Made by a program: the position numbers and the translations under genes. A DNA stretch of 48,583 bases from a virus. Lineage: Duplodnaviria; Caudoviricetes. How positions within the stretch are numbered: the first letter of the stretch is position 1; each line of letters begins with the position of its first letter. Where the stretch lies: positions 1 through 48,583 of IMG/VR virus record IMGVR_UViG_3300017785_007713. The stretch is one strand, 5' to 3'. Below are positions 25,952 through 48,583 of this stretch, piece after piece. The notes beneath the pieces are model-generated. The model was not told the origin of the DNA. It saw only the letters and a list, made by a program, of their open reading frames with translations, and ran no database searches.

Positions 25952-26127
25952 ATCTTAGTCATATATCCCTCAAGAACTATTTTGAGATAATGTATATACT
26001 GACTAAGCACTATAAATATTCTTTAAGTGATTTAGAAACCATGTTGCCTTGGGAAAGAGATGTCTATGTCGAGCAGCTCCGAGCTGACGTAGAGAAAGAA
26101 AAGACGAAGAACAAGACATGGAAATAA
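25948..26127 (+). CDS. gp51: Baseplate hub assembly protein (T4 gp51-like), in the -1 frame relative to gp26
   Basis: Not in the ORF track. Reads LNLSHISLKNYFEIMYILTKHYKYSLSDLETMLPWERDVYVEQL...TWK*. The first ATG (25990) lies downstream of the SH.SL.NY segment. Confidence 0.8.
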   Translation, partial: LNLSHISLKNYFEIMYILTKHYKYSLSDLETMLPWERDVYVEQLRADVEKEKTKNKTWK

Positions 26128-29100
26128 ATCAAAATCAAACTCCATCCGATAAGTCAGAACTAAAAGAAAAGCTGAAGAATATCTTTTTGCCCTTAACTGG
26201 CGAAAACACCATTCAAAAGCTTCCGATCAATACTGAAAAGTACAAAGTCGAAAAAAAAGAGGAGCTGACGACTGAGATAACACCAGTCAAAAAACACGAT
26301 TCGATTCGTGAAAAAACTAATGGAGTTGATTTTAAAAATTTTGATTTTGGACTATCTGATAAATTAATACAAAATAGCCTAAACAATTATTTCATAAACA
26401 ACACAAGTATTTTGCCATCATCTGATACTGTAAATAATGAATCAAAATCATTTACAAACAGTGTTGATAGGTTGCTTGCTGAAAAATTACAGAATAATAG
26501 TGACTATTTTTCCATACTTGGAAATACAAGAAATAAAAACTATAGATTTAATCTTGTAAATTCAATTAAATCAAATCCAATATTTAATTTAACCAAAAGT
26601 TCATCTGTTGGTGGTTACAATTATCTCAGCGACTCCAATACGATCAATCAATCAGATTATATACAGAACTCAACCAGGAGTGATGTAAGCAATCAGGAAA
26701 ATGCATCCACCAAAAATACAACCCAAAATAATCTTTCTAGACTAGTAGATTCTAACGATTCGTCAAACACTATCAAAAACTCTGCTGTTAATACAAATAG
26801 TATAGTCAATAGTAACTCAGATTCAAATGAATCAATGTCTGTAAAGACTGACACCAGGAATTCTGAAACTGTAAAAAGTAACGTATCGTCAGCTACCGTA
26901 GCTCGTCCTACAAATTATTCTAGTAATTCTACATCAAAATCAAATGCAGAATCGACAAATAACACTGAAGAGATAAGTAAAATAGATTCAAATACTGCTG
27001 TCAATGAAAATAACAATACAGTATCCGATATCGGTTTCATCAAATCCGATAAAATTGATATAAATCAATCTTCTCCAGCAATTTCTAGATCTGATAATTT
27101 ACAACAGATGTCAAATAACGTAAATTATTCCTCAAGCACTATATTGCCTGGGTATACAGATGCAAATTCAAATTTAATAGATTCAACCAATATCATCAAG
27201 AATACTGCGACAAATCCAAATAGCATCTCGGTAGAGAATTCAACTAATAACAATGATGCCATTTCCTCAAAAACGCAGAATACAAGTAATAGACAAATTG
27301 ACATAATTTCAAATAACTCAAAAAATGCAGATTCCAACTCAATAGAAAAAAATACAAATATTTCTGTAAATTCAGCGAATACTGCTGAAAGAGCAGAAAC
27401 CAAATTAGTCAATCTTACCGAATCAATAACTGAAAGTTTAACAAATAATCAAAATTCAACAAATATTTCTGATGCAAATACAAATAGAACTAATGCACAT
27501 CAGTCAAATATCTCAAATACCACAGATCAATCGCAGATACAATCAAAAGATATATCAAATGTCGAATCGCAGTTATTTTCAAATAATAATGTAAATTCAA
27601 CAAATAGTAATTCATCTTCAAGTAAAATAAGCGACTCCGTAGTAAATAAAACAATCAATTCTGATATAGAAAAAGCTATAAGTTCAGCGAATGTAGATAG
27701 CTTGATAAAGAATGATTTATTTAATCCAAACAGTTTATCTGTCGATTTAACTAACAATTCAACTGATTCAACAAATGTTCTAAAAAATAATTCAACGAAT
27801 CCAAACAGTTTATCTGTTGATTTCAATGAAACTATTAATAGATCTCAAACTGACATTTCACCAAAAAATATAGAGTATGTAAAATCTATAAATGAAAATT
27901 CTTTGATTGGAATTGATTCCACACAGAATACTAACAAAATTAGTGATAATACAGAAAATACAATCAAACAACTTAACTCTGTTATTTCTGCTATTGAAAA
28001 TAGAATTGATGATACTTCTAAGAATGAAATAGTAGAAAATAAAAATAATAAAGTTGAGACTACAAATAATACAGAAAGAGAAGACTACGTATCTTCTCGA
28101 AACAATGACATAAGTCTATCAAATACTACAATCAATAGAACAGTTAATCCAAACAGTTTATCTGTCGATTTAACTAACAATTCAACTGATTCAACAAATG
28201 TTCTAAAAAATAATTCAACGAATCCAAACAGTTTATCTGTCGATTTAACTAACAATTCAACTGATTCAACAAATGTATTGAAGAGAATCGATGCAATCAG
28301 TAATATTTTTGACGGGAACAAAAAAACATCTTCGAATAATATAGTAAACGACAAAAAGGTAAATATTGATATTGGAATGTCATCTATTTCCCTAAGTGAA
28401 CGTCAAAGTTCACCTAAATCTACAATTAACAAAAATCAAACTAATATACAGAAAACACAGATTAATTCCAACATAACACCAAGTCATGAAAACAACTCAG
28501 ATAAAAATCTGAATGAAATCACAGATAATAGTAAAAAATCTTCAACTAATTATAAAGTTGATAATAAGACAATAAAGATTATTCCATCAAAACAAAAGAA
28601 TGCGGTAAACCAAAATAATAATAAAGCTTCAAATGTATTTGTTCTCATGAACAATTCTAGAAGTTCCAAAAATGCATTGGCAAAAGCATTTACTTCAAAA
28701 AGTAATAATATTAAGAACGACAATAATAATTCTTTAGTATTAAATGAAAATTCCAACGATACAAATCAAACTGATAATTTAAGTAAAACTCTAAAATTTA
28801 CTTATATTGATCCAAACAATATACGAAATATCGAAACAAATTATAAAAGCAATCCAGTATCATTGGCTAGTGATGTAAAAGTTACCAATATAAATCAAAA
28901 TAAAAAACAAAATACAAATAATAAACTTACCAGTTCCCCAAAAACGCTGAGTAAAGTTACGATAATTGATGGAAATACTATCGTGGGTGGAAATAACGTT
29001 GTCGATAGGAATAAAATCTCCAATGCTGTTTCAGATAAATCAATTGTAAATTTCTCCAATTTAACGAGTGATTTTATAGATCCATCCACGATAGTATCCA

Positions 29101-29798
29101 TCAAGAATAATTCTGTTGGAAATAATATTAAAAATCTTCAATCCAATACGGATAACATAGACTTTGATCACACATTCATTCCATCAGAAAGTGTTGTGAA
29201 TCAGATACAAGAAAAGTTCTACAATAGAACGACAAATAAATTACACAAGACTGCTGGTTCAACCAGTTCGTTCAAATTATTATCAAATTCAAATAGAGAA
29301 AATAATAAAAATAATTTTGTCAGTTCAAAATCATACATGGCAAAACAGACAAATGCCATGCCAGCACTTCGTTCTGGTGGGTTTGTCAAGACACCAACGG
29401 TTGCCTATCTACATGAAAATGAAGCAGTAGTCCCACTTGATAAGTCAAAGGAATTTTCAAAATTCATAACTGATATGAAATACTCCGACTCAAAGGCTGT
29501 TGAAAAAAATGAAATGAATTCGGATATTCGTGTAATTGATGATCAAAAAACATCAACAAGTAGTACAAAAGAAATACTAAAACAAATAACAAAACTTATA
29601 GAAACCACGAATAGCCGACAACCAGTACAACAAGTTGCCGCGCCAGCACCACAACCAATGGCAGCACCAGATCCAGCGAGTCCTGATATCTCCCAAGGTA
29701 CAAATAGCGTTGGTGCAGTATACAATGGTTCAGGATCGATATCAGATATGTTTGTAAAATCTTTCAGAGTTCCAGACTGGCGAACACGAATGGGATAA
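26118..29798 (+). CDS. Asn/Ser-rich low-complexity protein in the tape-measure (gp29) position
   Basis: 1226 aa, follows gp26/gp51. C-terminal PALRSGGFVKTPTVAYLHENEAVVPL motif resembles tape-measure C-termini. Confidence 0.55.
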   Translation: MEINQNQTPSDKSELKEKLKNIFLPLTGENTIQKLPINTEKYKVEKKEELTTEITPVKKHDSIREKTNGVDFKNFDFGLSDKLIQNSLNNYFINNTSILPSSDTVNNESKSFTNSVDRLLAEKLQNNSDYFSILGNTRNKNYRFNLVNSIKSNPIFNLTKSSSVGGYNYLSDSNTINQSDYIQNSTRSDVSNQENASTKNTTQNNLSRLVDSNDSSNTIKNSAVNTNSIVNSNSDSNESMSVKTDTRNSETVKSNVSSATVARPTNYSSNSTSKSNAESTNNTEEISKIDSNTAVNENNNTVSDIGFIKSDKIDINQSSPAISRSDNLQQMSNNVNYSSSTILPGYTDANSNLIDSTNIIKNTATNPNSISVENSTNNNDAISSKTQNTSNRQIDIISNNSKNADSNSIEKNTNISVNSANTAERAETKLVNLTESITESLTNNQNSTNISDANTNRTNAHQSNISNTTDQSQIQSKDISNVESQLFSNNNVNSTNSNSSSSKISDSVVNKTINSDIEKAISSANVDSLIKNDLFNPNSLSVDLTNNSTDSTNVLKNNSTNPNSLSVDFNETINRSQTDISPKNIEYVKSINENSLIGIDSTQNTNKISDNTENTIKQLNSVISAIENRIDDTSKNEIVENKNNKVETTNNTEREDYVSSRNNDISLSNTTINRTVNPNSLSVDLTNNSTDSTNVLKNNSTNPNSLSVDLTNNSTDSTNVLKRIDAISNIFDGNKKTSSNNIVNDKKVNIDIGMSSISLSERQSSPKSTINKNQTNIQKTQINSNITPSHENNSDKNLNEITDNSKKSSTNYKVDNKTIKIIPSKQKNAVNQNNNKASNVFVLMNNSRSSKNALAKAFTSKSNNIKNDNNNSLVLNENSNDTNQTDNLSKTLKFTYIDPNNIRNIETNYKSNPVSLASDVKVTNINQNKKQNTNNKLTSSPKTLSKVTIIDGNTIVGGNNVVDRNKISNAVSDKSIVNFSNLTSDFIDPSTIVSIKNNSVGNNIKNLQSNTDNIDFDHTFIPSESVVNQIQEKFYNRTTNKLHKTAGSTSSFKLLSNSNRENNKNNFVSSKSYMAKQTNAMPALRSGGFVKTPTVAYLHENEAVVPLDKSKEFSKFITDMKYSDSKAVEKNEMNSDIRVIDDQKTSTSSTKEILKQITKLIETTNSRQPVQQVAAPAPQPMAAPDPASPDISQGTNSVGAVYNGSGSISDMFVKSFRVPDWRTRMG
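27723..28276 (+). repeat. In-frame 75-bp (25-aa) direct repeats NPNSLSVDLTNNSTDSTNVLKNNST
   Basis: Full copies at 27723-27797 and 28146-28220; partial copies at 27798-27823 and 28221-28276; degenerate copy near 27180-27250. Confidence 0.9.
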
Positions 29799-35007: not shown

Positions 35008-35009
35008 AG

Positions 35010-35084
35010 TACGCCGTCTTGGATTCGAACCAAGTCTTACTCGATTATAAGTCGAGCTGAGATAACCAAGACCTCCCACGGCGC
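35010..35084 (-). tRNA. tRNA-Ile(UAU)
   Basis: GCGCCGT/ACGGCGT acceptor, GAGG/TCTC D-stem, CTCGA-CTTATAA-TCGAG anticodon arm, CTTGG-TTCGAAT-CCAAG T-arm. No encoded CCA. Confidence 0.88.
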
Positions 35085-36585: not shown

Positions 36586-36657
36586 TGCTTTGGGTGGGTA
36601 CTGCCCCCACATTCTTCACCTTAAAAGGGTGCTGCATTACTAGTCTGCCACCAAAGC
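36586..36657 (-). tRNA. tRNA-Lys(UUU) with non-canonical D and T loops
   Basis: GCTTTGG/CCAAAGC acceptor, CACC-CTTTTAA-GGTG anticodon arm, GTGGG-GGCAGTA-CCCAC T-arm. Confidence 0.75.
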
Positions 36658-37573: not shown

Positions 37574-38617
37574 TTATTTCTTATTATAGCGTGATCTTGC
37601 TGTTCTATACGCTCTAACATTACTCTTTGATCCAAATTCACGTTCCAACACAGATGCCTTCTTTCCTCTGGCACCTGAAATCACATCCTCTACTCCCTGC
37701 AACGCAGCATCGACATCACCAGCCTGTGCCTGCTTCATTCCTCGCTTAAATAATTTACCACTAGCAATTCTACCAGCCTTACTTTTCTTAACTTCAGGTG
37801 AAGTAGAAATCGCAAGTTTTTCTTCCTCACGACTCATTTTAGGTGTCTCAGATTCAATATTTTTAAGTCTGGCAGTTAGTCTTGCTTTTTCTTGTTTTGG
37901 ATCTCTTCTCATCTTTTCCGTGAGAAGTACCATGATATCTCTGAATGTTTTCGTTGATTCACCCATCTCTGTCCATTCACCATTTTGCTGCCTAAGAACT
38001 CTTGTAGTTTCTTCTGCTGCTGGTTTACTTGGAAGTGCTTTTCTGCGACCAGGGGTTGTTTGTCCTGTATGTGGTCTGGCATGATCTTTCAAATGGGCAG
38101 TATAATCTTGCATATATTGAAAATTTCTTATCTCTGACCAGGGAGTCTCTGCATTGATTGGAGGCATAGTTTCTTTTGGGACAGGTCTTCTTTTACTAGC
38201 AGCTGCCCATCTTGCCAATTCTGGATCTTGGCGAAATGCCTTGAATGCTGTATTGATATCAGCTGAGACAGTTGCTTGAGTAATTTCAAATGCATCTGCT
38301 ATTTCTTGTTGCGAATATCCATGTCTAGGATCACGGTTAAACCCCTTTACAAATTTCGATTTACGTTTTTTTGGTTTTGAGGTTTCCTCTGGAGTTTCTG
38401 ATGATTTTTCTATATCGTCTATAGGTTCTTCCATTGGTTCACTAGAGTCAGTCTTACCAAATTTAGCCATCATTCGTTTGAATTCGGGGGGAGATTCATA
38501 TGGCACATTTATATCTGCTCTAGGATCATTTTCACTAGATGCAGCAATTGCTTGTTCTCTGGCCTTGGCGTTACGCTGTTGTTGTTCGTCTCTTAAATGG
38601 GCTATAAGTGATTTCAT
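37574..38617 (-). CDS. Putative internal head protein with a sigma-region-4-like HTH
   Basis: Starts MKSLIAHLRDE; contains YSQQEIADAFEITQATVSADINTAFKAFR; TATAAATA late promoter upstream. Confidence 0.6.
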   Translation of the reverse strand: MKSLIAHLRDEQQQRNAKAREQAIAASSENDPRADINVPYESPPEFKRMMAKFGKTDSSEPMEEPIDDIEKSSETPEETSKPKKRKSKFVKGFNRDPRHGYSQQEIADAFEITQATVSADINTAFKAFRQDPELARWAAASKRRPVPKETMPPINAETPWSEIRNFQYMQDYTAHLKDHARPHTGQTTPGRRKALPSKPAAEETTRVLRQQNGEWTEMGESTKTFRDIMVLLTEKMRRDPKQEKARLTARLKNIESETPKMSREEEKLAISTSPEVKKSKAGRIASGKLFKRGMKQAQAGDVDAALQGVEDVISGARGKKASVLEREFGSKSNVRAYRTARSRYNKK

Positions 38618-39173: not shown

Positions 39174-39368
39174 TTAATTTGATCTTTTATATGGTCTAAA
39201 TCCAAGATCTCTTGATTTTTCAAATTTATCACCATCGGTTCTTGGTTTTGGCTCAGATTTTTTTGGATTTTGTGGATTTTTTGGTGGAAGCCTCTTTGGT
39301 ATTCTCTGTGCAGGAGAAACTGGCTTGATTTTTTCAGTTTCAATCAAAAAATCTTTAAAATTTTTCAT
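39174..39368 (-). CDS. Small basic putative internal protein
   Basis: 64 aa starting MKNFKDFLIE. Confidence 0.65.
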   Translation of the reverse strand: MKNFKDFLIETEKIKPVSPAQRIPKRLPPKNPQNPKKSEPKPRTDGDKFEKSRDLGFRPYKRSN

Positions 39369-39522
39369 TTATTTTCTTTCCAAAATACAGTTTATTTAGC
39401 TTTTTTAGCATTTTTTTAGTTGACTTGTTGTTTTTTGGGAAAAAAGCAGGATCCGACACATCTCCAGCGTACTTGTATGGTAACTCAACCCACTCTTTGA
39501 ATGTTTTCAATGTTCTTTTCAT
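39355..39522 (-). CDS. Small basic putative internal protein (55 aa)
   Basis: Not in the track. MKRTLKTFKEWVELPYKYAG...KINEKF*; ATGA overlap with the upstream gene. Confidence 0.55.
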   Translation of the reverse strand: MKRTLKTFKEWVELPYKYAGDVSDPAFFPKNNKSTKKMLKKLNKLYFGKKINEKF

Positions 39523-39971
39523 GACATTCGCTGAATATTGAGTCTTGCTTTTGCTATTTTTCTTTGAAGTGTCTGAATTCTTTGTGGACTTGTCTCTGTA
39601 CTGAGAGCCATTTCATGCTTTCTAATCGTATCATGAAGTCCAACAACCCCCTTCAGTCTATTTCCAGCTGAAGAAAAGTCTTGTCCTTGAAATCCACGTG
39701 CCACTCTTCGGTCAACTTTTGCAATTGCAGCATTTCTGGCTGCTTCTATCTCTGGAAGTTCATGTGAAAGCTTTTCAATTTCATTTGCTTTTTCGGTTCT
39801 ATCTTGCTGTTGTCGATATAGATTCAAAAATCTACCAACTTTTGGTATTATTCCACTACTTCGTTCTTGTTCTCTTTCAAGATTTATTTTCTTTACAAAT
39901 TTCTTTGCGGCAGAAATCTTTGTCCTTCTGGAACGCAAAACACCCTCAAGTAACTGATCTAATGTTTTCAC
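39519..39971 (-). CDS. Basic putative internal protein
   Basis: 150 aa, GTG start, MKTLDQLLE. Confidence 0.65.
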   Translation of the reverse strand: MKTLDQLLEGVLRSRRTKISAAKKFVKKINLEREQERSSGIIPKVGRFLNLYRQQQDRTEKANEIEKLSHELPEIEAARNAAIAKVDRRVARGFQGQDFSSAGNRLKGVVGLHDTIRKHEMALSTETSPQRIQTLQRKIAKARLNIQRMS

Positions 39972-39973
39972 TG

Positions 39974-40585
39974 TTATTTTCCGATTATATTGCTTGAAAC
40001 TGTTCCAGATGATGCACTATTACTCCCAATACTGGATTGACCGTAATATTTTGGATTTAAATTAATTGGTTTTGGTTGCCATGGTTTTGATGAACTACCA
40101 ATTGCGCCAATATCTCTAAATTCTTTTTCTTCTCTTGGTAAAATTCCAGCATTTTCTCGCTCTTTTTCCCATTGTATCAATGAGTATCCAGGATTTTGTG
40201 GTCTTGGATTTTTTGCTTCCCATTCTATTGCTTTTCTTTCATTCTGTGGATTTGACCACCACTGTTTTCGTTCACCCTGCTGTTTTTCCCAGGCTTGTTT
40301 TTTGGAAGTAGAAGCTTCTGAGGCTAATCTTTCTCTTTCCGCATATACCTTTGCCTCGTCTGGATTTTTTGCTTCCCATTCTCGTCTGAGGCGTGAATTT
40401 TCTTCTTCAGCTTTTTTCTGCTGTTCTGGTGTGGTTCTTTGTCCCCCACCAAAAGATATTGATGAGCGACCAAGATTACTTTGACCAGACATGGGCATTT
40501 TCATTGCTTCATTGACAAGATTCATTTTTTTTGAAATTAAGTCTTGCAATTCCTTGAATGTTTGATTGTTTGGGTGGTCTAGCAT
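39974..40585 (-). CDS. Charged putative internal protein
   Basis: 203 aa; QTFKELQDL...LVNE; internal EWEAKNP repeat; TATAAATA at 40610-40617. Confidence 0.65.
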   Translation of the reverse strand: MLDHPNNQTFKELQDLISKKMNLVNEAMKMPMSGQSNLGRSSISFGGGQRTTPEQQKKAEEENSRLRREWEAKNPDEAKVYAERERLASEASTSKKQAWEKQQGERKQWWSNPQNERKAIEWEAKNPRPQNPGYSLIQWEKERENAGILPREEKEFRDIGAIGSSSKPWQPKPINLNPKYYGQSSIGSNSASSGTVSSNIIGK

Positions 40586-40625
40586 ATATTATTTTCCATC
40601 TTATAAAAATATTTATATTTTTCAC

Positions 40626-40653
40626 TTGACAGGTTTATTTTCGTTGATATAAT
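40626..40653 (+). promoter_or_regulatory. Consensus sigma70-type promoter firing antisense into 40690..41892
   Basis: TTGACA-16 bp-TATAAT with TGn upstream of the -10; no credible plus-strand ORF follows. Confidence 0.6.
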
Positions 40654-40689
40654 TCTTTTGTCTGAGAGAAAGGGATAATAAATTCTAAG

Positions 40690-41892
40690 TTAATTACTAG
40701 AAGCCTGGGCTATTTTGGCTTCAGTCCTTGCCAAAGATTGTTGCACTCTCTTTTGTCTCTTCTCACCTAGACGAGAAAGAACAATTGACTTTAGTCTATT
40801 CTGCTTGTCCTTCAATTCATCAATCGATGGACCAGATGCTTCAGAAGGTTCACCCACCATTCTATTTGGTCTTCGTGCGATGTTTCCACGTGATTCATTT
40901 TTCTCTGGAGTATATCCTCCAACTTTAATCAAATGATCTCTGACTCTTGTCAGTGCATAAATCGCTGTTTTTGGGCCAATATCACCTTGTGTGAGTGTAT
41001 GAATTAGTTCACCAGAAGATGATCGAATTTTTAGGTGCTTTCCTTTGGTTTCAATGTTTAAATGATTAGAATATTGCTCTAAGTGTCTTCTCAATCCATT
41101 AGTCGTCATTTGCAGGGGATTTACTCCTAGAATTCTTTTACCACCCGATTCATTCAACGATTTTTTGGAATTGCCAATCTTTTCAAGAAGAACGTTGAAT
41201 CTGCATGGTTCATAGGAATCACCTATTGTCCTCATGAGATTATACTGAGCCATTGGCATACTCTCTGGTTTTGGTCCAATTGCTGCCCTGATATCTGTCG
41301 ATGTTGGAACTGCTGCTTGTGGCTGTGGATCCCTGCTTCTTTTTCCACCAGTCTCGCCAATATATTTGTTTACTGTATTCAAATCACCAAGCGCAACTTG
41401 ATCCTGCTGTGGCACTGGTAGATTACTTTGACGAAGATGATCGTCTCTGTGTGTTTTACCTGTGTCAAATCCATTTAGTGATATTCCAAATGAATGGTTT
41501 TTTGGAAGACTTTCCAAGGCTGGTTTAAATGTCCTCAATGGTTCTATGAAATCATGTGGGTGTGCGTTGTTTGTATCACTCGATATTATTATACTATGTG
41601 TTTTGGAGCCATCTTCATGATGTGTTGTACTACGCCAGCTACGCATCCATCCAAGATCATTGAGTGCTTTATTCACGTGATATGATTCGGCCCTTTCGTT
41701 ATTTCTCATACGAGTGTATTCAGCATCATTGCCTACAGCGGCTTTGAATTCTTCGTGTGACATCCCAAATTTTTCTGGATTCTGTGCAGCAAAAACACCA
41801 TGATCCTCTGGTGGACCGAAATCTGGTTCTGGAATTGGGGCAATTGCTCCACTCTTATGCACCCAGGCTTTTCTTGGAATATTCATGTTCAA
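40690..41892 (-). CDS. Hypothetical protein, possibly with a C-terminal HicA-like domain
   Basis: 400 aa. Internal LLE/LNE sites, then LRRHLEQY...ETKGKHLKIRSSSGELIHTL..GD.GP. Confidence 0.6.
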   Translation of the reverse strand: MNMNIPRKAWVHKSGAIAPIPEPDFGPPEDHGVFAAQNPEKFGMSHEEFKAAVGNDAEYTRMRNNERAESYHVNKALNDLGWMRSWRSTTHHEDGSKTHSIIISSDTNNAHPHDFIEPLRTFKPALESLPKNHSFGISLNGFDTGKTHRDDHLRQSNLPVPQQDQVALGDLNTVNKYIGETGGKRSRDPQPQAAVPTSTDIRAAIGPKPESMPMAQYNLMRTIGDSYEPCRFNVLLEKIGNSKKSLNESGGKRILGVNPLQMTTNGLRRHLEQYSNHLNIETKGKHLKIRSSSGELIHTLTQGDIGPKTAIYALTRVRDHLIKVGGYTPEKNESRGNIARRPNRMVGEPSEASGPSIDELKDKQNRLKSIVLSRLGEKRQKRVQQSLARTEAKIAQASSN

Positions 41893-42380
41893 TACTCGGC
41901 TATTCCCCGTGAAAGTCTACCTCTTGCCATTCCTCTTGCCGCATCAGTGACTTGTATCAGTCCCTTGGAACTCATGATTTTGGCAACAGTTGGGCTTGCC
42001 ATGATCTTTGCCATCTTTGGTCCATAGATCCCAGCCTTTGCCGCATCTCCAGCATATGGAACCATACTGATACCATGAAGTGCTGCGTTCGTATAGTGTT
42101 CTTTTTTCTTCGCGGGATCGCCAGCAAATAATCCACGAACAAGTGATATTCCAGTGTTGATACCATCCATTGCTGGGGTTGGATCAGCAACGCCACCAAC
42201 GGCAAGAAGACCTTGACCAACATCAAGGGCAGTGTCTATGAATCCAGGAGACTCTGGTTGCTCTGGAGCCTCTTCTTCTTCAACCTCTTCTATTTCTTTT
42301 TTCTTTTTCTTTCCCTCTTCTTCACCCTCTTCGTATTCTTCGTCCATAGATTCAACGATAAATTGTTTGAATGATTTCAT
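41889..42380 (-). CDS. Putative internal protein with a pre-toxin-TG-like domain
   Basis: MKSFKQFIVE, an acidic linker, then LDVGQGLL...DGINTGISLV...YTNAALHGISMVPYAGDAAK. Confidence 0.65.
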   Translation of the reverse strand: MKSFKQFIVESMDEEYEEGEEEGKKKKKEIEEVEEEEAPEQPESPGFIDTALDVGQGLLAVGGVADPTPAMDGINTGISLVRGLFAGDPAKKKEHYTNAALHGISMVPYAGDAAKAGIYGPKMAKIMASPTVAKIMSSKGLIQVTDAARGMARGRLSRGIAEY

Positions 42381-42856
42381 TGTTTTTTCCTTGCTCTTAT
42401 ATTTTTTATCAAATCCCGTCTTTTCAGATATATTTTATGTGCTTCTTGACCAATCTCATGATCTGTCACACCTTCGTATGGCTTGGTTGCATCGTGAAGA
42501 TCTACTAATCCAGCACGAATCTCTTGACCAACCATCGCGTGGTCATAGTTATGTGTATAGATTTTATGAGCCTTTTCTCTCATAAGTTCATCCAATGACA
42601 TCACTTTAGGATCATCATCATTTCCAATTGGAACACCGAGTTGACCGTGAGTGGTATGCATGTTCACATCCTCCACATCGAACTCACCCTCGTTGGTTCT
42701 TCTTGCAAGTCTCATCTCGGCGCGGTCGAGCTTCTTCTGAGATACACCACGTTCATACATGGAGTCGATGCGATCCTCAAGCTTCTTGGTATCTCTTGCG
42801 TATCGCTTTTGTCCCTTTGGACGGGCTTCTGTCAAGTATTCGATAAAAGTTTTCAT
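42377..42856 (-). CDS. Putative internal protein
   Basis: 159 aa starting MKTFIEYLTE. Confidence 0.7.
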   Translation of the reverse strand: MKTFIEYLTEARPKGQKRYARDTKKLEDRIDSMYERGVSQKKLDRAEMRLARRTNEGEFDVEDVNMHTTHGQLGVPIGNDDDPKVMSLDELMREKAHKIYTHNYDHAMVGQEIRAGLVDLHDATKPYEGVTDHEIGQEAHKIYLKRRDLIKNIRARKKQ

Positions 42857-43455
42857 TGCTTAATTCCAAGCTTTCTCATTCTTCCACGATTTCTATTTAA
42901 ATGTGTAGCCAATATACCCCTGGTTTTTTCATTCGTGGATGGATCTTGAGCTCTTTTGATAATATTCTCAAAACTTGCTCTTTCTTTGTTCTTTCTTTCA
43001 GATGAAATCGAACGACCCAATGTTGCTTTTATATTTGCATCATAGTCAAAGTTTTGAAGCAATGGCTCGGTCACATGCCTATAGGAAAAGCTATCATCGG
43101 CTGTCTGTGAATTTATCGTGTGGAGAAGATTTCCAAAACCAGAGGCTGGGTTGTATCCAAGAGCCTTTGCGGATCTATAAATCCTACTACCAGTATTCTT
43201 ATCAACCAACTCTTTTTTCTTTTTCGATGCGGCTAGACTAGCGGCTTCAGCAGATCTCGTTGCTCCTTCTTCGTTCGCCTTCGTGTCTAAATTATCAGCA
43301 GCTAATGAAACTCTAATCAGTTTTTTATTCGCAGTGGCAAGAGGATTCGTGCCAAAATATTCTGTCATTTGGTTGCGAGACATCTGCCTAGCAGCTCTAT
43401 CCCTTTGCCTGCGCTTTTTCCACGATTCATGAAGGTATTCTTTGAATGATTTCAT
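42853..43455 (-). CDS. Putative internal protein
   Basis: Starts MKSFKEYLHE (ATG at 43455); GGAG upstream. Confidence 0.7.
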   Translation of the reverse strand: MKSFKEYLHESWKKRRQRDRAARQMSRNQMTEYFGTNPLATANKKLIRVSLAADNLDTKANEEGATRSAEAASLAASKKKKELVDKNTGSRIYRSAKALGYNPASGFGNLLHTINSQTADDSFSYRHVTEPLLQNFDYDANIKATLGRSISSERKNKERASFENIIKRAQDPSTNEKTRGILATHLNRNRGRMRKLGIKQ

Positions 43456-43461
43456 ATTCAA

Positions 43462-44289
43462 TTATTTAGGAGATTCTGGAAGAACAAGCAGGCGAGACTC
43501 GGTTCTATTTCCCATCTTGATCTGATCGTCAATCCTTTGTTGATCCTTGACTGCATCACGATATCGACCAGATGGAACCTTTGATTTATTTCCAGTCCTC
43601 TTCTTCGTCACGTCAAGGCTGTAGGCATCTGAGAAGTTCCTTGGGGTCACATGACCATATGACTTCCACGACAATACTCTTTCACCAAATTTCTCACCAG
43701 GATATCTTTCATTCGCACCCAGCTGGAGAACTCTATGGACTCGATTTCCAGTCTCATGTCCGTGGTTCACGGTCTTTCTCCACATCGATATTCCACCCTT
43801 TGACTGCATTCCTCCACTCATTATGCCAAATCCTGTTGCATTTGCAACAGAGTGCAATAAATTACGGGGAAGGTCAAATACACCCTTTTTCACATTTGTT
43901 CGAGTTTTTCCTGGAGTTCCAGAGAACATCCTAATGCTTCTGCCATCTGGTCCGTGGAAGAAATCAGCACGACCAGAACTCATGGAGTAGTGCATCAGCG
44001 AAGTCTTCTCATGGCCTGGTTTGCTGGAAAACACACGAACACTCATGTAATGAGGATCAGTCTCTTTCTCACCTGGCATATGGTCAATCATCGCATGAAA
44101 ATCATCATTCAACTGAACTCTCTTGGTAGTCTCCGTTGGAGCATAGTTGGCCCCGATGTCCTTGACCAATGAGGCCATGTCTGGAATCAATTTTTCTTTT
44201 CTGGACTTCTTGATGATCTCAGGATTCTCTGAATCATAACCACCCATAATGTCTTCTACAAGGTAACGAATAAAAGATTTCACGGTCAA
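43462..44289 (-). CDS. Putative internal protein, possibly GNAT-like
   Basis: (M/V)KSFIRYLVE start; IMSGGMQSKGGISMW motif. Confidence 0.55.
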   Translation of the reverse strand: MTVKSFIRYLVEDIMGGYDSENPEIIKKSRKEKLIPDMASLVKDIGANYAPTETTKRVQLNDDFHAMIDHMPGEKETDPHYMSVRVFSSKPGHEKTSLMHYSMSSGRADFFHGPDGRSIRMFSGTPGKTRTNVKKGVFDLPRNLLHSVANATGFGIMSGGMQSKGGISMWRKTVNHGHETGNRVHRVLQLGANERYPGEKFGERVLSWKSYGHVTPRNFSDAYSLDVTKKRTGNKSKVPSGRYRDAVKDQQRIDDQIKMGNRTESRLLVLPESPK

Positions 44290-44558
44290 TTTACTCCGAA
44301 TCCACGATCAAGCCGATCATTTTCCCTGGCTCTGGCTTCCTGCTCAGCTTTTCTTTTTCTTTCGGATCTCATTCGATCCAAGGGTTGTTCCTTTCCCTTT
44401 AGCTTCGTGGTTTCAACACCTGGCTTGGCCGATGTGCTAGGCTCCTTTATCACCCTGACACTCTCTATTTCATTGTAATCCCTATCGACTCTGCTCAGGA
44501 CATCCTGCTCCATCATCAAAGTTAAAAATCTCTGTTTAAAATATTCGACCAGTGTCAT
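44286..44558 (-). CDS. Small protein, paralog of 45274..45630
   Basis: MTLVEYFKQRFLTLMMEQ...VDRDYNEIE...GFG; GGGAG RBS. Confidence 0.7.
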   Translation of the reverse strand: MTLVEYFKQRFLTLMMEQDVLSRVDRDYNEIESVRVIKEPSTSAKPGVETTKLKGKEQPLDRMRSERKRKAEQEARARENDRLDRGFGVN

Positions 44559-44599
44559 TTTTTACTCCCTTTAATTATTTATTCAACAAGAAACCCCCA

Positions 44600-45235
44600 T
44601 CACTGGGGGTTCTCCTTGATTCCATAATGGTAATTGTCCGTGTCCTCTGTTATCCACTTCGGACATTGCTCCGATGTCCAGATTCGACTGTTCAATTTCC
44701 TCTGGATCACCATCTCACCAGACTTCACGGTAAACGAAGGATCATGGACAAGAATTCTATTATTTGGTTGAATGGCAAAGTTACCATTATCAAGACGAAT
44801 GACATGACCACACTTGTGCTGACCAGGAGCCTCCGAGAACCCCGTATCCAATGTGTTCGCGTGACCAGAGGCCCAGTCAAGAGTAAACATGTAGTCACCA
44901 AAGACCTTCTCTCCAGATCTTGATATGTAAGACATCTTTTTATTCTTCAGAACATCAAACACGGTGGCACAGGAATAATAGGAAAAGGAATCCCATAGGA
45001 CGAGTTCTGGGAGTTCCTGGGCCTTTGCATTCTTCTTCCAACAGAAGGCCGATATGGGCATTCTCCACCATATTCCACCATCCTCCATGAGAAAATGAAA
45101 GAGGGGAGTACGGGAGGGTATGCTAGACATTCCAAAGACAAGACATGGAAACTTCTTGTCAAACGAATCTTCCATATTTCTCAGATACTCTCCACGAACT
45201 ATGCATTCGATGGGGGGAATGTTTATGTTGAACAT
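44600..45235 (-). CDS. Conserved phage hypothetical protein
   Basis: NIPPIEC.VR.EYL...WWRMPISAF...LWDSFSY...YMFTLDW...HKCGH...GNFAIQPNNR; has its own promoter. Confidence 0.8.
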   Translation of the reverse strand: MFNINIPPIECIVRGEYLRNMEDSFDKKFPCLVFGMSSIPSRTPLFHFLMEDGGIWWRMPISAFCWKKNAKAQELPELVLWDSFSYYSCATVFDVLKNKKMSYISRSGEKVFGDYMFTLDWASGHANTLDTGFSEAPGQHKCGHVIRLDNGNFAIQPNNRILVHDPSFTVKSGEMVIQRKLNSRIWTSEQCPKWITEDTDNYHYGIKENPQ

Positions 45236-45241
45236 GTGTAG

Positions 45242-45270
45242 AGTATATCAGAGAAAAATAAAAAAATCAA
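45242..45270 (-). promoter_or_regulatory. Sigma70-type promoter, probably leaderless
   Basis: TTGATT-17 bp-TATACT with TGn; the ATG lies 6 nt downstream. Confidence 0.6.
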
Positions 45271-45273
45271 ATA

Positions 45274-45630
45274 TTATTTTCTATTTGCTCCGAATCCAGG
45301 ACCAGCACGAATATCCTCAACAGAGTTCATACTAGAGTTTGAATTAAAAATGTTATTATTTATTTTTGCTTCACGTTCTGCCTGCTGTGCTCTTCTTCTT
45401 CTATCCATTCTGATCTGATCACCTGTTTTTTCCTTTGGTTTAGGTTCTATAAATTGCGTACCTGGATTTATTGCGAGATTTGGTGGACGCATTGTTCTTA
45501 TATCTTCTATCTCGTCATAGCTTCTATCTACATTCACTTTAGATGAACCATGGAATCGAACATCACCTACCATATCTTCTTGTTCCATCAAGTATAAAAA
45601 ACGTTGTTTGAAATATTCTACTAGTGTCAT
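45274..45630 (-). CDS. Small protein, paralog of 44286..44558
   Basis: MTLVEYFKQRFLYLMEQ...VDRSYDEIE...GPGFG. Confidence 0.7.
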   Translation of the reverse strand: MTLVEYFKQRFLYLMEQEDMVGDVRFHGSSKVNVDRSYDEIEDIRTMRPPNLAINPGTQFIEPKPKEKTGDQIRMDRRRRAQQAEREAKINNNIFNSNSSMNSVEDIRAGPGFGANRK

Positions 45631-45876
45631 TTTAATACCCTTTAAAGTATTTAGAAAAAAACTAATAGAGTGTTTTTTTCTAGGAAAAAATTTTTGAGTT
45701 CTGGGAGTCCCATGATGAGTAAGGGGGTGGGGAGGGGGTCTGAGGTGTTGAAGAGCAAGCCCCTAGCGACAGATGGGATCCCAAACGCTGTTTTTACTGT
45801 TCTGTGACAGGTTTGGAGCGTGACAAGGGTCACGGCCAATTGCTGATAGTGTTTACGAAAAATCTTGTCGAAGCAT

Positions 45877-45905
45877 CTATATTGAGATGCAGAGTGTGGT
45901 ACAAT
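45877..45905 (+). promoter_or_regulatory. Cassette promoter 1
   Basis: CTATAT-17 bp-TACAAT; hairpin GGGC-AATTCT-GCCC at 45912-45925. Confidence 0.8.
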
Positions 45906-45940
45906 TCGGTAGGGCAATTCTGCCCAACAGGAGATTTGAA

Positions 45941-46189
45941 ATGAATAAGTTTAGAGTTACCACACTTAACGGTGGCTCGAACCTGCTCGTTAGCAGGTTC
46001 GAATTTGAAGGGTTATCTTACGCCATCAAGGTGGCGGAAGAAACCCCCGAGAACCTTCGGGCAATCGTGTCTGTCTTCAACCCCTATAAGGGGGGGTGGG
46101 TTGACATTCTCGACCGTAGGGCGGCACACACGCCACCCGAAGGCTACGGCCTTCGGACCAGGCCGCCTGTCCTGTTGCCGATCTTCTGA
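45941..46189 (+). CDS. Cassette 1 hypothetical protein (82 aa)
   Basis: AGGAG RBS then MNKFRVTTL...PVLLPIF. Confidence 0.75.
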   Translation: MNKFRVTTLNGGSNLLVSRFEFEGLSYAIKVAEETPENLRAIVSVFNPYKGGWVDILDRRAAHTPPEGYGLRTRPPVLLPIF

Positions 46190-46210
46190 TCGGCCCCCCC
46201 CCCCACATCG

Positions 46211-46268
46211 TCTTTTCTCCCCACGGGGCTACGGTGGTTCACCCGACCACCGTAGCCCTTGTTTATTT
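46211..46268 (+). terminator. Terminator-like hairpin, copy A
   Basis: GGGCTACGGTGGT-TCACCCG-ACCACCGTAGCCC followed by TTGTTTATTT. Confidence 0.8.
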
Positions 46269-46330
46269 GGTGGTTGCACTATCAGCACCCAGCTGCTGAT
46301 AGTTCTCCTAAAGAAATTGCTACGATGGCT

Positions 46331-46359
46331 CTATATTAGAAGTTCATCTGTGGTATACT
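46331..46359 (+). promoter_or_regulatory. Cassette promoter 2
   Basis: CTATAT-17 bp-TATACT; hairpin GTTGGC-AATGGT-GCCAAC at 46366-46383. Confidence 0.8.
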
Positions 46360-46399
46360 TCACTCGTTGGCAATGGTGCCAACCCTGTCTGGAGGATCC

Positions 46400-46654
46400 A
46401 TGAGTAAACTTTACTGTAAGATTTCGGAGTCCGCTCGTCGGACTGTCCCGACCGCACGCGCCCACCACGCGGCGACCGTTGAGGTCGCCAACTGGAAGTT
46501 CCGCATCTCTGTGCGGATGATCGCCAACGGTGGCGGTGGGGCCGATATGGTTTCGGTGATCATCACCAACCTGGAATCGGGTTGGTCTGAACAGATCGTG
46601 AACGAAACCGCTGGCGAAATCTGGCGCAAGCAAACGCACGCGCCATCCCTCTGA
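46400..46654 (+). CDS. Cassette 2 hypothetical protein (84 aa)
   Basis: GGAGG RBS then MSKLYCKISES...THAPSL. Confidence 0.75.
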   Translation: MSKLYCKISESARRTVPTARAHHAATVEVANWKFRISVRMIANGGGGADMVSVIITNLESGWSEQIVNETAGEIWRKQTHAPSL

Positions 46655-46712
46655 TCTTTTCTCCCCATGGGGCTAGGATGGTTCACCCGACCATCCTAGC
46701 CCTTGTTTATTT
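46655..46712 (+). terminator. Terminator-like hairpin, copy B
   Basis: GGGCTAGGATGGT-TCACCCG-ACCATCCTAGCCC followed by TTGTTTATTT. Confidence 0.8.
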
Positions 46713-46772
46713 TGTCCTTGTACTATCAGCAACACGCTGCTGATAGTTCGGCAAAGAAATCCCAAGATTGAT

Positions 46773-46801
46773 CTATGTTTGGTGACACCGTGTTGTAGAA
46801 T
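46773..46801 (+). promoter_or_regulatory. Cassette promoter 3
   Basis: CTATGT-17 bp-TAGAAT; hairpin GGGC-AATGCC-GCCC at 46808-46821. Confidence 0.78.
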
Positions 46802-46833
46802 ACCCTTGGGCAATGCCGCCCACGGAGGATTGT

Positions 46834-47229
46834 ATGTCCATTCACGAAGCGTTTATGAAATTGGTTGAACAGCCGATTTCGTGTGGGAAGTTCTATGTGG
46901 TCCTGTGGAAAGAAATGCAGTTCTACGGTGGCCCACAGGAGGGCGGATGGTGGGGCTGGGACAGCGTTCCAGAATCCTATGTGGTCGTCAACACCCGCGA
47001 GGATGCGATTGGCCTCGCCAAGCGCATCGTTGGGCTGGCAGCGGAACTGAACCGCGAGGCGATCATGGAACACGGGCGCGCATGTATCGCCCAGTTGGAG
47101 CACTGTGAGGCTCGAGGCATCGAAGACGCTAACACCGTCTTCGGTGAGGTTGGTGGTCCCGACAGGTACAAGGTCAGGATCTCGACTAAACTCCCTCGCG
47201 CACGCTACGGAGATCGGCAGTGGTCTTGA
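46834..47229 (+). CDS. Cassette 3 hypothetical protein (131 aa) with a YGGPQEGGWW motif
   Basis: GGAGGATTGT RBS then MSIHEAFMKL...; GC-rich codons. Confidence 0.8.
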   Translation: MSIHEAFMKLVEQPISCGKFYVVLWKEMQFYGGPQEGGWWGWDSVPESYVVVNTREDAIGLAKRIVGLAAELNREAIMEHGRACIAQLEHCEARGIEDANTVFGEVGGPDRYKVRISTKLPRARYGDRQWS

Positions 47230-47231
47230 GC

Positions 47232-47263
47232 GAGGGGGCTTCGGCCCCCTCTGCCTTTTTTTT
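47232..47263 (+). terminator. Intrinsic terminator
   Basis: GAGGGGGC-TTCG-GCCCCCTC, then TGCC and T8. Confidence 0.85.
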
Positions 47264-47321
47264 AGTGGCACTATCAGCAACACGCTGCTGATAGTTCGGC
47301 AAAGAAATCTTGTAGAATCAT

Positions 47322-47350
47322 CTATATTGGAGCGCAGGGTATCGTAGAAT
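47322..47350 (+). promoter_or_regulatory. Cassette promoter 4
   Basis: CTATAT-17 bp-TAGAAT; hairpin GGGC-AATTCC-GCCC at 47357-47370. Confidence 0.8.
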
Positions 47351-47385
47351 ACCGATGGGCAATTCCGCCCTTTGGAGGATTGTAA

Positions 47386-47670
47386 ATGATCGTCAAGAAT
47401 GTGAGCATCGCTCAGGCGACCTCGCATCTGTCGCACCCCGCACAGATGCTCTACACGGGGATGACCCCCGATGATGTCCGCAAGGAACCGTTCGGGTTCC
47501 TCGCCATGTGCGAGGATGGCACGATTCGCGGTGGCATCACCGCCAGTCTCATGTCCCTGTCAGACATGATCGCAAACATGAAGCGGGAATATCACCCCAC
47601 GGAAATCATGTCGTTCGATTTCCGCGAGGCCGACCCGCGCGTTCTATTCCCCGCACGGAGGAGCGCGTGA
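47386..47670 (+). CDS. Cassette 4 hypothetical protein (94 aa)
   Basis: GGAGGATTGT RBS then MIVKNVSIAQ.... Confidence 0.8.
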   Translation: MIVKNVSIAQATSHLSHPAQMLYTGMTPDDVRKEPFGFLAMCEDGTIRGGITASLMSLSDMIANMKREYHPTEIMSFDFREADPRVLFPARRSA

Positions 47671-47674
47671 AACC

Positions 47675-47700
47675 CAACACCCGCCGAAAGGCGGGTGTTG
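47675..47700 (+). terminator. Terminator-like hairpin with a weak U tract
   Basis: CAACACCCGCC-GAAA-GGCGGGTGTTG. Confidence 0.7.
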
Positions 47701-47804
47701 TCATGCCATGGCCGCACTATCAGCAACCACGCTGCTGATAGTTCGCCGCACCCCACTTTCAGATTTCCCGTGAAATATAAATCTGGGAAATATCGTCAAG
47801 CCGT

Positions 47805-47833
47805 CTATATTGAAGTGCAGGGTATCGTATACT
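47805..47833 (+). promoter_or_regulatory. Cassette promoter 5
   Basis: CTATAT-17 bp-TATACT; hairpin GCGC-AATGTC-GCGC at 47840-47853. Confidence 0.8.
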
Positions 47834-47870
47834 ACACACGCGCAATGTCGCGCATTGGAGGATTGTCGAT

Positions 47871-48233
47871 ATGGTCAAGTTTGTTCGTGAGTGGTTCAGC
47901 CGTCTGTTCCCCGCCCCCGCACCCGCCGCGCCGATCACCGTCGTGTCGCCGTTCAAGTCGTTCGAGTACTGGGTGCTCGGAGCGCACCGCAGCAAGGTGA
48001 TCGCGGCGGGAACGGTGACCGCGCGGTGCGAAGCCGATGCGATCAAGTCGATCTACTCCCTCGCGGGAGAGCGCATCCAGTTCCACAACGGTGGACGCTA
48101 CCGCGTCCACCACGGCGGGGACGGCGTGGTTGTGACCCGCATCGACCGCGCGGATCGGCGGAAGGCTGGCGACCGCAAGCGGCACCGCGACCGCCGCGCG
48201 GAAACTGCCGACTGGGGAACGGTGGGGGAATAA
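47871..48233 (+). CDS. Cassette 5 hypothetical protein (120 aa, Arg-rich C-terminus)
   Basis: GGAGGATTGT RBS then MVKFVREWFSRLF.... Confidence 0.78.
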   Translation: MVKFVREWFSRLFPAPAPAAPITVVSPFKSFEYWVLGAHRSKVIAAGTVTARCEADAIKSIYSLAGERIQFHNGGRYRVHHGGDGVVVTRIDRADRRKAGDRKRHRDRRAETADWGTVGE

Positions 48234-48252
48234 CCCCACCCAACCCACGCAA

Positions 48253-48287
48253 CCCAAAGGGGGGCTTCGGCCCCCCTCGACTTTGGG
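48253..48287 (+). terminator. Terminator-like hairpin
   Basis: GGGGGGC-TTCG-GCCCCCC, extendable by CCCAAA/TTTGGG. Confidence 0.7.
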
Positions 48288-48349
48288 ACAGCCGTACTAT
48301 CAGCAACCACGCTGCTGATAGTCCTCTCAAAGAAATTTTGTTGAAGCAT

Positions 48350-48378
48350 CTATATTTGGGGGCGAAGTCTGGTACAAT
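48350..48378 (+). promoter_or_regulatory. Cassette promoter 6
   Basis: CTATAT-17 bp-TACAAT; hairpin GGGC-AATTCC-GCCC at 48385-48398. Confidence 0.8.
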
Positions 48379-48418
48379 CCCATAGGGCAATTCCGCCCCA
48401 CACAACTTGGAGGATTGT

Positions 48419-48583
48419 ATGGCTCTCAACTGGAATGTCGGCAAGGTCAAGGACTTCAAGACCGTCTGCTACAATGCGGACGGCAAGGTGAATGCGGTCA
48501 CCGAGACGCTTATCTGGGCAAGCATGATCATCGGGGTGAGCGACATCACCGAGAAGAACGCGGAGGAGTTCTTCTTCCGCATC
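48419..48583 (+). CDS. Cassette 6 hypothetical protein, partial (runs off the right edge)
   Basis: Not in the track. GGAGGATTGT-ATG, then MALNWNVGKVKDFKTVCYNADGKVNAVTETLIWASMIIGVSDITEKNAEEFFFRI.... Confidence 0.75.
   Translation, partial: MALNWNVGKVKDFKTVCYNADGKVNAVTETLIWASMIIGVSDITEKNAEEFFFRI

Follow-up and report, generated by a model that had tools for sequence, protein, structure and literature searches.

An array of small-gene units with a shared palindrome and a non-canonical promoter class in a T4-like phage

Introduction

The closest described counterparts of the locus analysed here are the promoter-early stem-loop (PeSL) elements of T4-like phages, which join a promoter, an AT-rich tract and a stem-loop in hyperplastic regions of the genome. 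Mini-circles and crossovers at varied points are described for them, and no dedicated recombinase is known for them (PMC2839356). In the phage nt-1, PeSLs lie along a run of six consecutive open reading frames (ORFs) with many rearrangements, and versions with middle promoters (PmSL) exist (PMC4122927). Here we examine an array of small-gene units at positions 45841-48583 (+ strand), at the right end of the 48,583-bp viral contig IMGVR_UViG_3300017785_007713, the whole of which we call the window. The layout of such an array is already known and common, PeSL arrays of like layout having been published (PMC4122927). What is new is that the cassette promoters share a lineage-specific, non-canonical -35 box beside canonical promoters elsewhere in the genome. 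We consider it likely that this T4-like phage carries a set of self-contained units that varies between relatives, that the host polymerase transcribes them before replication, and that homologous recombination between modules reshuffles them.

A further counterpart is the block of genes 143-171 in mycobacteriophage Wildcat, a mosaic of 29 small genes with gaps of 80-100 bp that share motifs. The block is the most highly expressed early region and has a saw-tooth RNA profile; 12 of its 29 genes are toxic, gp155 with a toxicity index of 2 (PMC7474061).

Architecture of the array

The window holds six consecutive units of 453, 444, 548, 447, 580 and at least 271 bp (u1-u6), delimited as the initial annotation had described. 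Five of them begin with a perfect palindrome, ACTATCAGCA-N6/7-TGCTGATAGT, starting at 46278, 46722, 47270, 47716 and 48296, a pattern that had no match in any of 100 shuffled sequences; unit 1 has the right half-site TGCTGATAGT only, at 45841, its left arm being absent. From the palindrome or half-site each unit runs through an A-rich tract, TCTAT[AG]TT, exactly 16 bp, TAnAnT, a hairpin and GGAG(G)AT to one ORF. The features are as follows, the activity of promoters, 5' hairpins and terminators being predicted from the DNA.

45841..45850, + strand: unit 1 right half-site TGCTGATAGT, without left arm
45876..45935, + strand: unit 1 promoter TCTATATT-N16-TACAAT, 5' hairpin and ribosome-binding site (RBS)
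45941..46189, + strand: ORF u1, 82 aa, no family
46225..46259, + strand: predicted intrinsic terminator after u1 (fold and T-tail)
46278..46303, no strand: palindrome, 10-bp arms, 6-bp spacer
46330..46397, + strand: unit 2 promoter, 5' hairpin and RBS
46400..46654, + strand: ORF u2, 84 aa
46669..46703, + strand: predicted terminator after u2 (fold and T-tail)
46722..46747, no strand: palindrome, 6-bp spacer
46772..46830, + strand: unit 3 promoter TCTATGTT-N16-TAGAAT, 5' hairpin and RBS
46834..47229, + strand: ORF u3, 131 aa, phrog_24642
47232..47263, + strand: predicted terminator with T-tract after u3 (fold and terminator scan)
47270..47295, no strand: palindrome, 6-bp spacer
47321..47380, + strand: unit 4 promoter, 5' hairpin and RBS
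47386..47670, + strand: ORF u4, 94 aa, no family
47675..47700, + strand: strong hairpin after u4, weak T-tail (z -5.8)
47716..47742, no strand: palindrome, 7-bp spacer
47743..47863, + strand: unit 5 long upstream spacer (common to the unit of the u5 homologue in contig L001), promoter and RBS
47871..48233, + strand: ORF u5, 120 aa
48258..48277, + strand: predicted terminator hairpin after u5 (fold)
48296..48322, no strand: palindrome, 7-bp spacer
48349..48415, + strand: unit 6 promoter, 5' hairpin and RBS
48419..48583, + strand: ORF u6, truncated at the window end (full length 125 aa in P0017)

The cassette promoter, TCTAT[AG]TT-N16-TAnAnT, occurs six times in 48.6 kb, always inside the array and on the + strand, against a mean of 0.1 in shuffled sequence. 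With a GC content of 56%, compared to 37% for bases 1-45700, the uniformly oriented units are as GC-rich within an AT-rich genome as had been claimed. The module content annotated for each unit stands for the promoter and for the RBS (GGAG(G)AT in 6/6), and less fully for the other elements. The AAGAAAT form of the A-rich tract is found in four of the six units, and in u5 about 36 extra bp separate palindrome and promoter. The 5' leader hairpins, which begin 6-7 nt past the -10 box, are visible by eye, but none is individually significant against shuffles (z -1.4 to +0.8). The terminator-like hairpins 3' of the stop codons do fold far better than shuffles in all five cases (z -2.4 to -6.0); a + strand terminator scan gave T-tails after u1, u2 and u3 and none after u4 or u5. 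Neighbouring modules also share repeat blocks (D3, D4, D8 and D12) with differing start and stop points, which is the pattern expected from unequal crossing-over. Block D4 is 87% identical over 95 nt, and the u1 terminator is a near-copy of the u2 terminator.

The likeness to PeSLs is extensive. Both lie in T4-like genomes as intergenic modules of stem-loop, AT-rich tract, promoter and Shine-Dalgarno sequence before small ORFans, both form runs of consecutive units, and in both relatives differ by insertion, replacement and displacement. The modules studied here include a stem-loop terminator (5/5 hairpins, activity predicted), precede ORFans in a hyperplastic region whose content differs in a relative, and bound the units by which relatives differ, as judged from one distant relative and strain contigs. 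A -10 box and an A-tract are present, but not the sigma-70-like -35 box at 17 bp. The array adds an invariant palindrome or half-site between terminator and promoter, whereas the term 'palindrom' is absent from the PeSL paper (PMC2839356), and it further differs in its 5' leader hairpin and in being GC-rich against its genome. Mini-circles were shown for PeSLs (PMC2839356); in the assembled contigs of eight runs no circle of the array was found. Because of the non-canonical -35 box and the extra palindrome we do not file the array as a strict PeSL member. Rfam had no match within the array, and no paper describing this motif set or a switch of promoter class was found in a search of main texts of the mostly open literature.

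Promoter classes

A relative phage, represented by one viral contig (L001, L122, L356) and syntenic with the window for about 13 kb from gp32 to the border of the array, carries seven promoter units of the same palindrome family with ten forward ORFs. In both phages two kinds of promoter exist. Canonical TTGACA-N17-TAnAAT promoters stand before non-array genes on the - strand, four in the window and five in the relative, among them denV, transfer RNAs (tRNAs) and a WYL_2 gene; as chance alone yields on average 1.7 matches to this pattern in the window, the evidence for them is their placement before genes. The palindrome core is absent from the 25 bp upstream of these promoters. None of the six cassette promoters in the window passes a standard sigma-70 scan. 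Their -35 position reads CTATAT (CTATGT in u3), while the cassettes of the relative have TAGAC[AT] in six of seven cases and TCGACA in the seventh. In the orthologous u5 unit the distance from core to -10 box is 85 bp in both phages and the upstream spacer is shared, but the -35 box is exchanged.

Since the -35 box was swapped in every unit and the palindrome was left unchanged, the class has been rewritten in concert. The change may be due to gene conversion among modules, to selection by a trans-acting factor, or to both. The cassette promoters would then be a separate class in which a lineage-specific box replaces the -35 element and which probably needs help from an UP element or a phage activator; transcription may be immediate or delayed early. 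T4 middle promoters, which work by sigma appropriation, offer a comparison, with a MotA box 12 +/- 1 bp from the -10 box and centred at -30 (PMC2988021). They share with the array a host-type -10 box (often TGn) and a phage-specific upstream box in place of the -35 element, but in the array this box lies 16 bp from the -10 box, at the -35 position, in 6/6 units, and neither a MotA nor an AsiA homologue turned up among the scanned ORFs.

One gene outside the array is a candidate for the trans-acting factor:

37574..38617, - strand: candidate factor of 347 aa with a weak sigma-region-4-like helix-turn-helix (HTH) at about residues 96-130

The gene lies 7 kb left of the array, with a terminator and then an TATAAATA late-promoter box upstream, as is also the case for its syntenic orthologue in the relative (148 aa, L122 4776-5222, 30% identical, with the motif RADIN.PY in common). 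The best Sigma70_r4 matches of the two proteins (E 0.002 and 0.066, respectively) do not reach the Pfam cut-off, and scores for other HTH families are similar. The orthologue had no significant sequence match in PDB (an RpoH region-4 stretch reached E 0.71), and its predicted model, with a predicted local distance difference test (pLDDT) score of 55, is too poor for a structure search. The recognition helices differ between the phages, like the -35 boxes, and the palindrome is the same, a comparison of two genomes only. The L122 orthologue also starts with a 10-residue leader that is similar to the N-termini of the leftward genes nearby. As a cassette-promoter factor the HTH protein is, given two genomes and a poor model, a lead only, and it is doubtful that it would be packaged, injected and redirect host RNA polymerase to the cassette promoters, its recognition helix co-evolving with the -35 box. 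If this were true, a foreign gene recombined into a module would at once join a first-minute regulon driven by an injected factor, one that the host's own sigma would read poorly.

Variation of the array

The initial annotation proposed that the array gains, loses and reorders units, and the relative phage bears this out. Behind the same border its array holds other genes, and only homologues of u5 (53% identical, L001 5318-5674) and u2 (61%) are in common. Both are found in its second unit, joined in one unit and in another order than in the window. Three of its seven units have two ORFs, so that 'single-gene' does not hold throughout. The u5 gene has moved together with its long upstream spacer, and the similarity to the L001 unit begins at the palindrome (score 66 to its right, p 0.002; score 10 to its left, p 0.78). 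A resemblance between the left flank of the relative's second unit and window u2 was not used, its score of 19 being equalled by another unit. The last elements of the relative's array are three direct half-sites at intervals of 18-19 bp (L001 9215-9290); the array then meets a GC-rich gene in convergent orientation, which has a TTGACA promoter of the canonical kind (L001 9343-9762).

Scans of viral contigs gave only this one contig with an array of this kind. A loose palindrome scan that covered 34/64 parts of the viral contigs returned 121 loci, and single matches look like chance; none of eight such loci inspected, from this and the genome-collection scan, is an array. L287, with two loose matches, lies outside the eight. 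In the metagenome scan (32/64 parts, 119 loci) more than one palindrome was found only in the window's own contig L056 and in an identical piece, L078. The palindrome matches in the genome collection (n=14) are single sites only, and a DNA search of 50,697 phage records gave no match.

Among close strains, of about 92-100% identity, order is kept, with colinear pieces at 46331-47779 (X10) and 47497-48583 (X6). The changes seen are at the level of the ORF: in other strains the 3' half of u1 or the entire u1 ORF is replaced. In X6, and also in X3, 152 other letters stand in place of 46041-46210 within one long colinear contig, and at an X11 joint (45943-46210) the whole u1 ORF appears replaced, from start codon to terminator. 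Breakpoints map inside the ORF, to the start codon, to the terminator, or to the stretch that separates A-tract and -35 box. These replacements indicate that the array changes, slowly, at breakpoints in several parts of the module. Another X11 joint, 46317-47318, which could be a loss of u2 and u3, was not counted since its side of 29 letters and depth of 4.75 fall below the bar. One backward joint in the contigs of eight runs is better explained by a further unit than by a circle.

The array also continues beyond the window, as predicted. The identical piece L078 extends it by 178 bp, records of runs X1, X2, X6, X8 and X11 reach as much as 1.6 kb beyond the window, and a further module with matching promoter format follows in 8/8 runs examined (assembled contigs), in three of four runs of one set with one more palindrome and then new sequence. 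Because the sequence beyond the shared part is new, we take the extra joints for further units and not for deletions or circles, and read the array as having at least two further units past the window end. Two of the data sets, X8 and X9, look like one.

The encoded proteins

The ORFs of u1-u6 are mutually unrelated (best cross-match E 0.9), and those of u1-u5, at 82, 84, 131, 94 and 120 aa, agree with the annotated one unrelated ORF of 82-131 aa per unit in the window. That of u6 continues past the window, and P0017, a 125-aa entry of the protein collection, is identical over the 114 aa searched. A family search placed none of the six in Pfam or NCBIfam and one, u3, in PHROGs. The u2 protein has, besides the homologue in the relative, one in L176 (36%), which lies beside a u3 homologue.

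Most information is available for u3, which has a homologue in a cultured phage, Wildcat gp155 (36% identical, E 2e-4), and 140 relatives in viral contigs. Of the 140, 80 were kept, and 65 loci were left when those below 8 kb and near-duplicates were dropped. An 11-mer with four or more copies inside 8 kb was present at 21/65 of these loci against 1/41 control viral loci, and a stricter repeat test gave 12/65 against 0/41, the controls not being matched to the u3 loci in gene size. The repeat motif differs by lineage. Together with the Wildcat block, the repeat-bearing u3 loci suggest that repeat-punctuated runs of small genes drawing on a shared gene pool are common in phages. The Wildcat block resembles the array in being a run of small genes with a u3 homologue and repeat-bearing gaps. 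It belongs to a cos-type actinophage and has no single motif common to all of its gaps (PMC7474061), whereas the module of the array is the same in every unit. Long small-gene runs with a lineage-specific motif before each gene are seen in L143, L188-L190, L139-L142 and L218, all of which include a u3 homologue, and motif copies in such phages reach 37 in 16 kb. At L176 8001-8620 the u3 and u2 homologues stand back to back, downstream of a repeated TTGACA promoter.

The predicted u3 model (pLDDT 87) matched only unnamed phage proteins in BFVD and no usable family in the Atlas. The early takeover role proposed for the array finds homology support for u3, through gp155, and no such support for the other ORFs. 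The cargo probably acts on the host, a view for which u3 alone gives support, and an early role of this kind is plausible.

Proposed movement and regulation of the units

The right core of the palindrome, TGATAGT, is invariant in all 13 aligned modules of both phages. The left arm is absent in 4/13, the spacer is 5-7 bp long and variable in sequence, and one site is shortened. With the terminator upstream and the promoter downstream of it, the palindrome stands outside the mRNA and therefore most likely acts as DNA. By its sequence it probably binds a co-regulating phage protein, with TGATAGT as the working part, since an invariant core with variable left arm and spacer is more in keeping with a half-site bound by a protein than with a site for a tyrosine recombinase. 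In the mechanism that we propose, host RNA polymerase would transcribe each unit separately during the pre-replicative phase, and general homologous recombination between terminator-palindrome-promoter modules would reshuffle the units over evolutionary time, as for the PeSLs of T4. The phage protein bound at the palindrome would co-regulate the units, and the palindrome would also supply homology for crossover. Of the recombination at the repeats that had been suggested, the module-bounded differences are observed, but a crossover at the palindrome is not what the strains indicate, their breakpoints lying elsewhere.

Dif- and lox-type tyrosine-recombinase sites have two arms around a spacer whose length is fixed and whose sequence is common to the sites. 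Integron arrays are unidirectional rows of unrelated single genes with palindromic sites between them; their cassettes are mostly promoterless, with imperfect attC hairpins, and the integrase adjoins the array. With its unrelated genes all pointing one way and palindromic sites interposed, our array recalls an integron, and movement of its cassettes by a phage or host tyrosine recombinase at dif- or integron-like sites would account for the 10-11-bp arms and 6-7-bp spacer, for homology in the moved u5 unit that starts at the palindrome, and for arms that can fold as single-stranded DNA (z -3.2 to -4.5). We nevertheless regard site-specific recombination as quite unlikely. The spacers of 5, 6 or 7 bp differ in sequence, so the fixed spacer of dif- and lox-type sites is not found here; one site is shortened, four of 13 modules have a half-site only, and three direct half-sites close the array of the relative. 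Strain breakpoints fall in the ORF, start codon, terminator or the interval between A-tract and -35 box. The units each have their own promoter (6/6), with predicted terminators, and their sites are perfect 26-27-bp palindromes or half-sites. The nearby recombinase that was looked for did not turn up: no integrase family is present among the ORFs scanned, and a crude recombinase motif is missing from the 48.6-kb and 18.4-kb contigs, which are a minor part of each genome. An integron integrase was likewise not found by either route in the sequence left of the right end.

It is also improbable that the array is a co-regulated regulon only, in which the repeats are kept as regulatory sites with no part in gene exchange. 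Order is kept in close strains, and the change of the -35 box affected every unit together, the orthologous u5 unit included, which points to selection on regulation. But at this locus the relative differs both in the genes present and in their order, u5 brought its upstream spacer along, and in X11 a whole ORF appears replaced between the same promoter and terminator. Cassette order and content are thus not invariant, despite the stable order in close strains. The possibility of a chimeric join, or of a separate element attached to a phage contig, was raised by the GC jump from 37% to 56% and by the position of the array at a contig end. It is practically negligible, as the border between AT-rich and GC-rich DNA is crossed by X1 record 1 (44000-46751, 0 differences; X1 may be the source) and by X6 record 25 from another study, and a separate relative phage has the matching border followed by an array of like kind.

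Several observations weigh against homologous reshuffling of co-regulated, host-acting units as we propose it. The start of u5 homology at the palindrome also fits site-specific exchange. The order is stable among close strains, so shuffling must be slow, and with a single distant relative gains and losses can be neither separated nor counted. The distance from half-site to promoter ranges over 25-63 bp without clear helical phasing (p ~0.2-0.3, 7 distinct values), which weakens a direct activator role of the palindrome. Five of the six ORFs are without a family-based function assignment, and the u3 model has no match in PDB at E <= 0.001.

Genome surroundings

Family matches identify the phage as T4-like, with a gp32-like single-stranded DNA-binding protein, baseplate wedge, head closure and a gp33-like late coactivator. 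The best matches of the gp32-like protein are to cyanophages and pelagiphages (53-62%), and matching sequence is present in freshwater, lake and estuary sequencing runs. The array is separated from the leftward late genes by a conserved border:

45648..45825, no strand: non-coding border between leftward late genes and array, 85.6% identical to L001 4527-4704 over 180 nt

In the comparison with L001 this border is more conserved than the neighbouring coding DNA (69-79%). It contains A/T and G runs and could be a packaging, origin or DNA-entry signal.

The leftward genes at 39174-45630 and 37574-38617 (both - strand) begin with similar 10-residue N-termini, for example MKSFKQFIVE, MKTFIEYLTE, MKSFKEYLHE and MKNFKDFLIE, and several of them sit behind nTAAATA boxes. 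These leader letters presumably resemble T4 targeting sequences. On the strength of its N-termini the run is likely a large internal-protein locus. It varies, since g163, g202, g275, g90, the 211-aa gene and g118 are without match in the relative. A 68-nt direct repeat (75%) at 44514-44581 and 45586-45653 spans the late-promoter box and gene start of two paralogues, which both begin MTLVEYFKQRFL and lie on either side of the 211-aa phrog_3704 gene. In T4, internal proteins are packaged via 10-residue N-terminal targeting sequences (PMC9026906, PMC3012670).

Further to the left, gp32 is adjoined by an Asn/Ser-rich ORF of 1,226 aa (26118-29798), which is of low complexity and contains internal repeats. 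Two tRNA genes stand behind canonical promoters, a tRNA-Ile with anticodon TAT (35009-35084, - strand), also present in L122, and a second one found by Rfam only (36586-36657, - strand).

Conclusions

The array offers a ready-made set of small phage genes, each likely expressed separately and probably directed at the host; in the one cultured analogue, Wildcat, 41% of such genes are toxic to the host (PMC7474061). Two promoter classes in one genome, with a -35 switch around a fixed palindrome, make a natural test case for how accessory arrays are homogenised. The array would also be a test case for a possible reprogramming of the host polymerase by a packaged factor ahead of any phage transcription.

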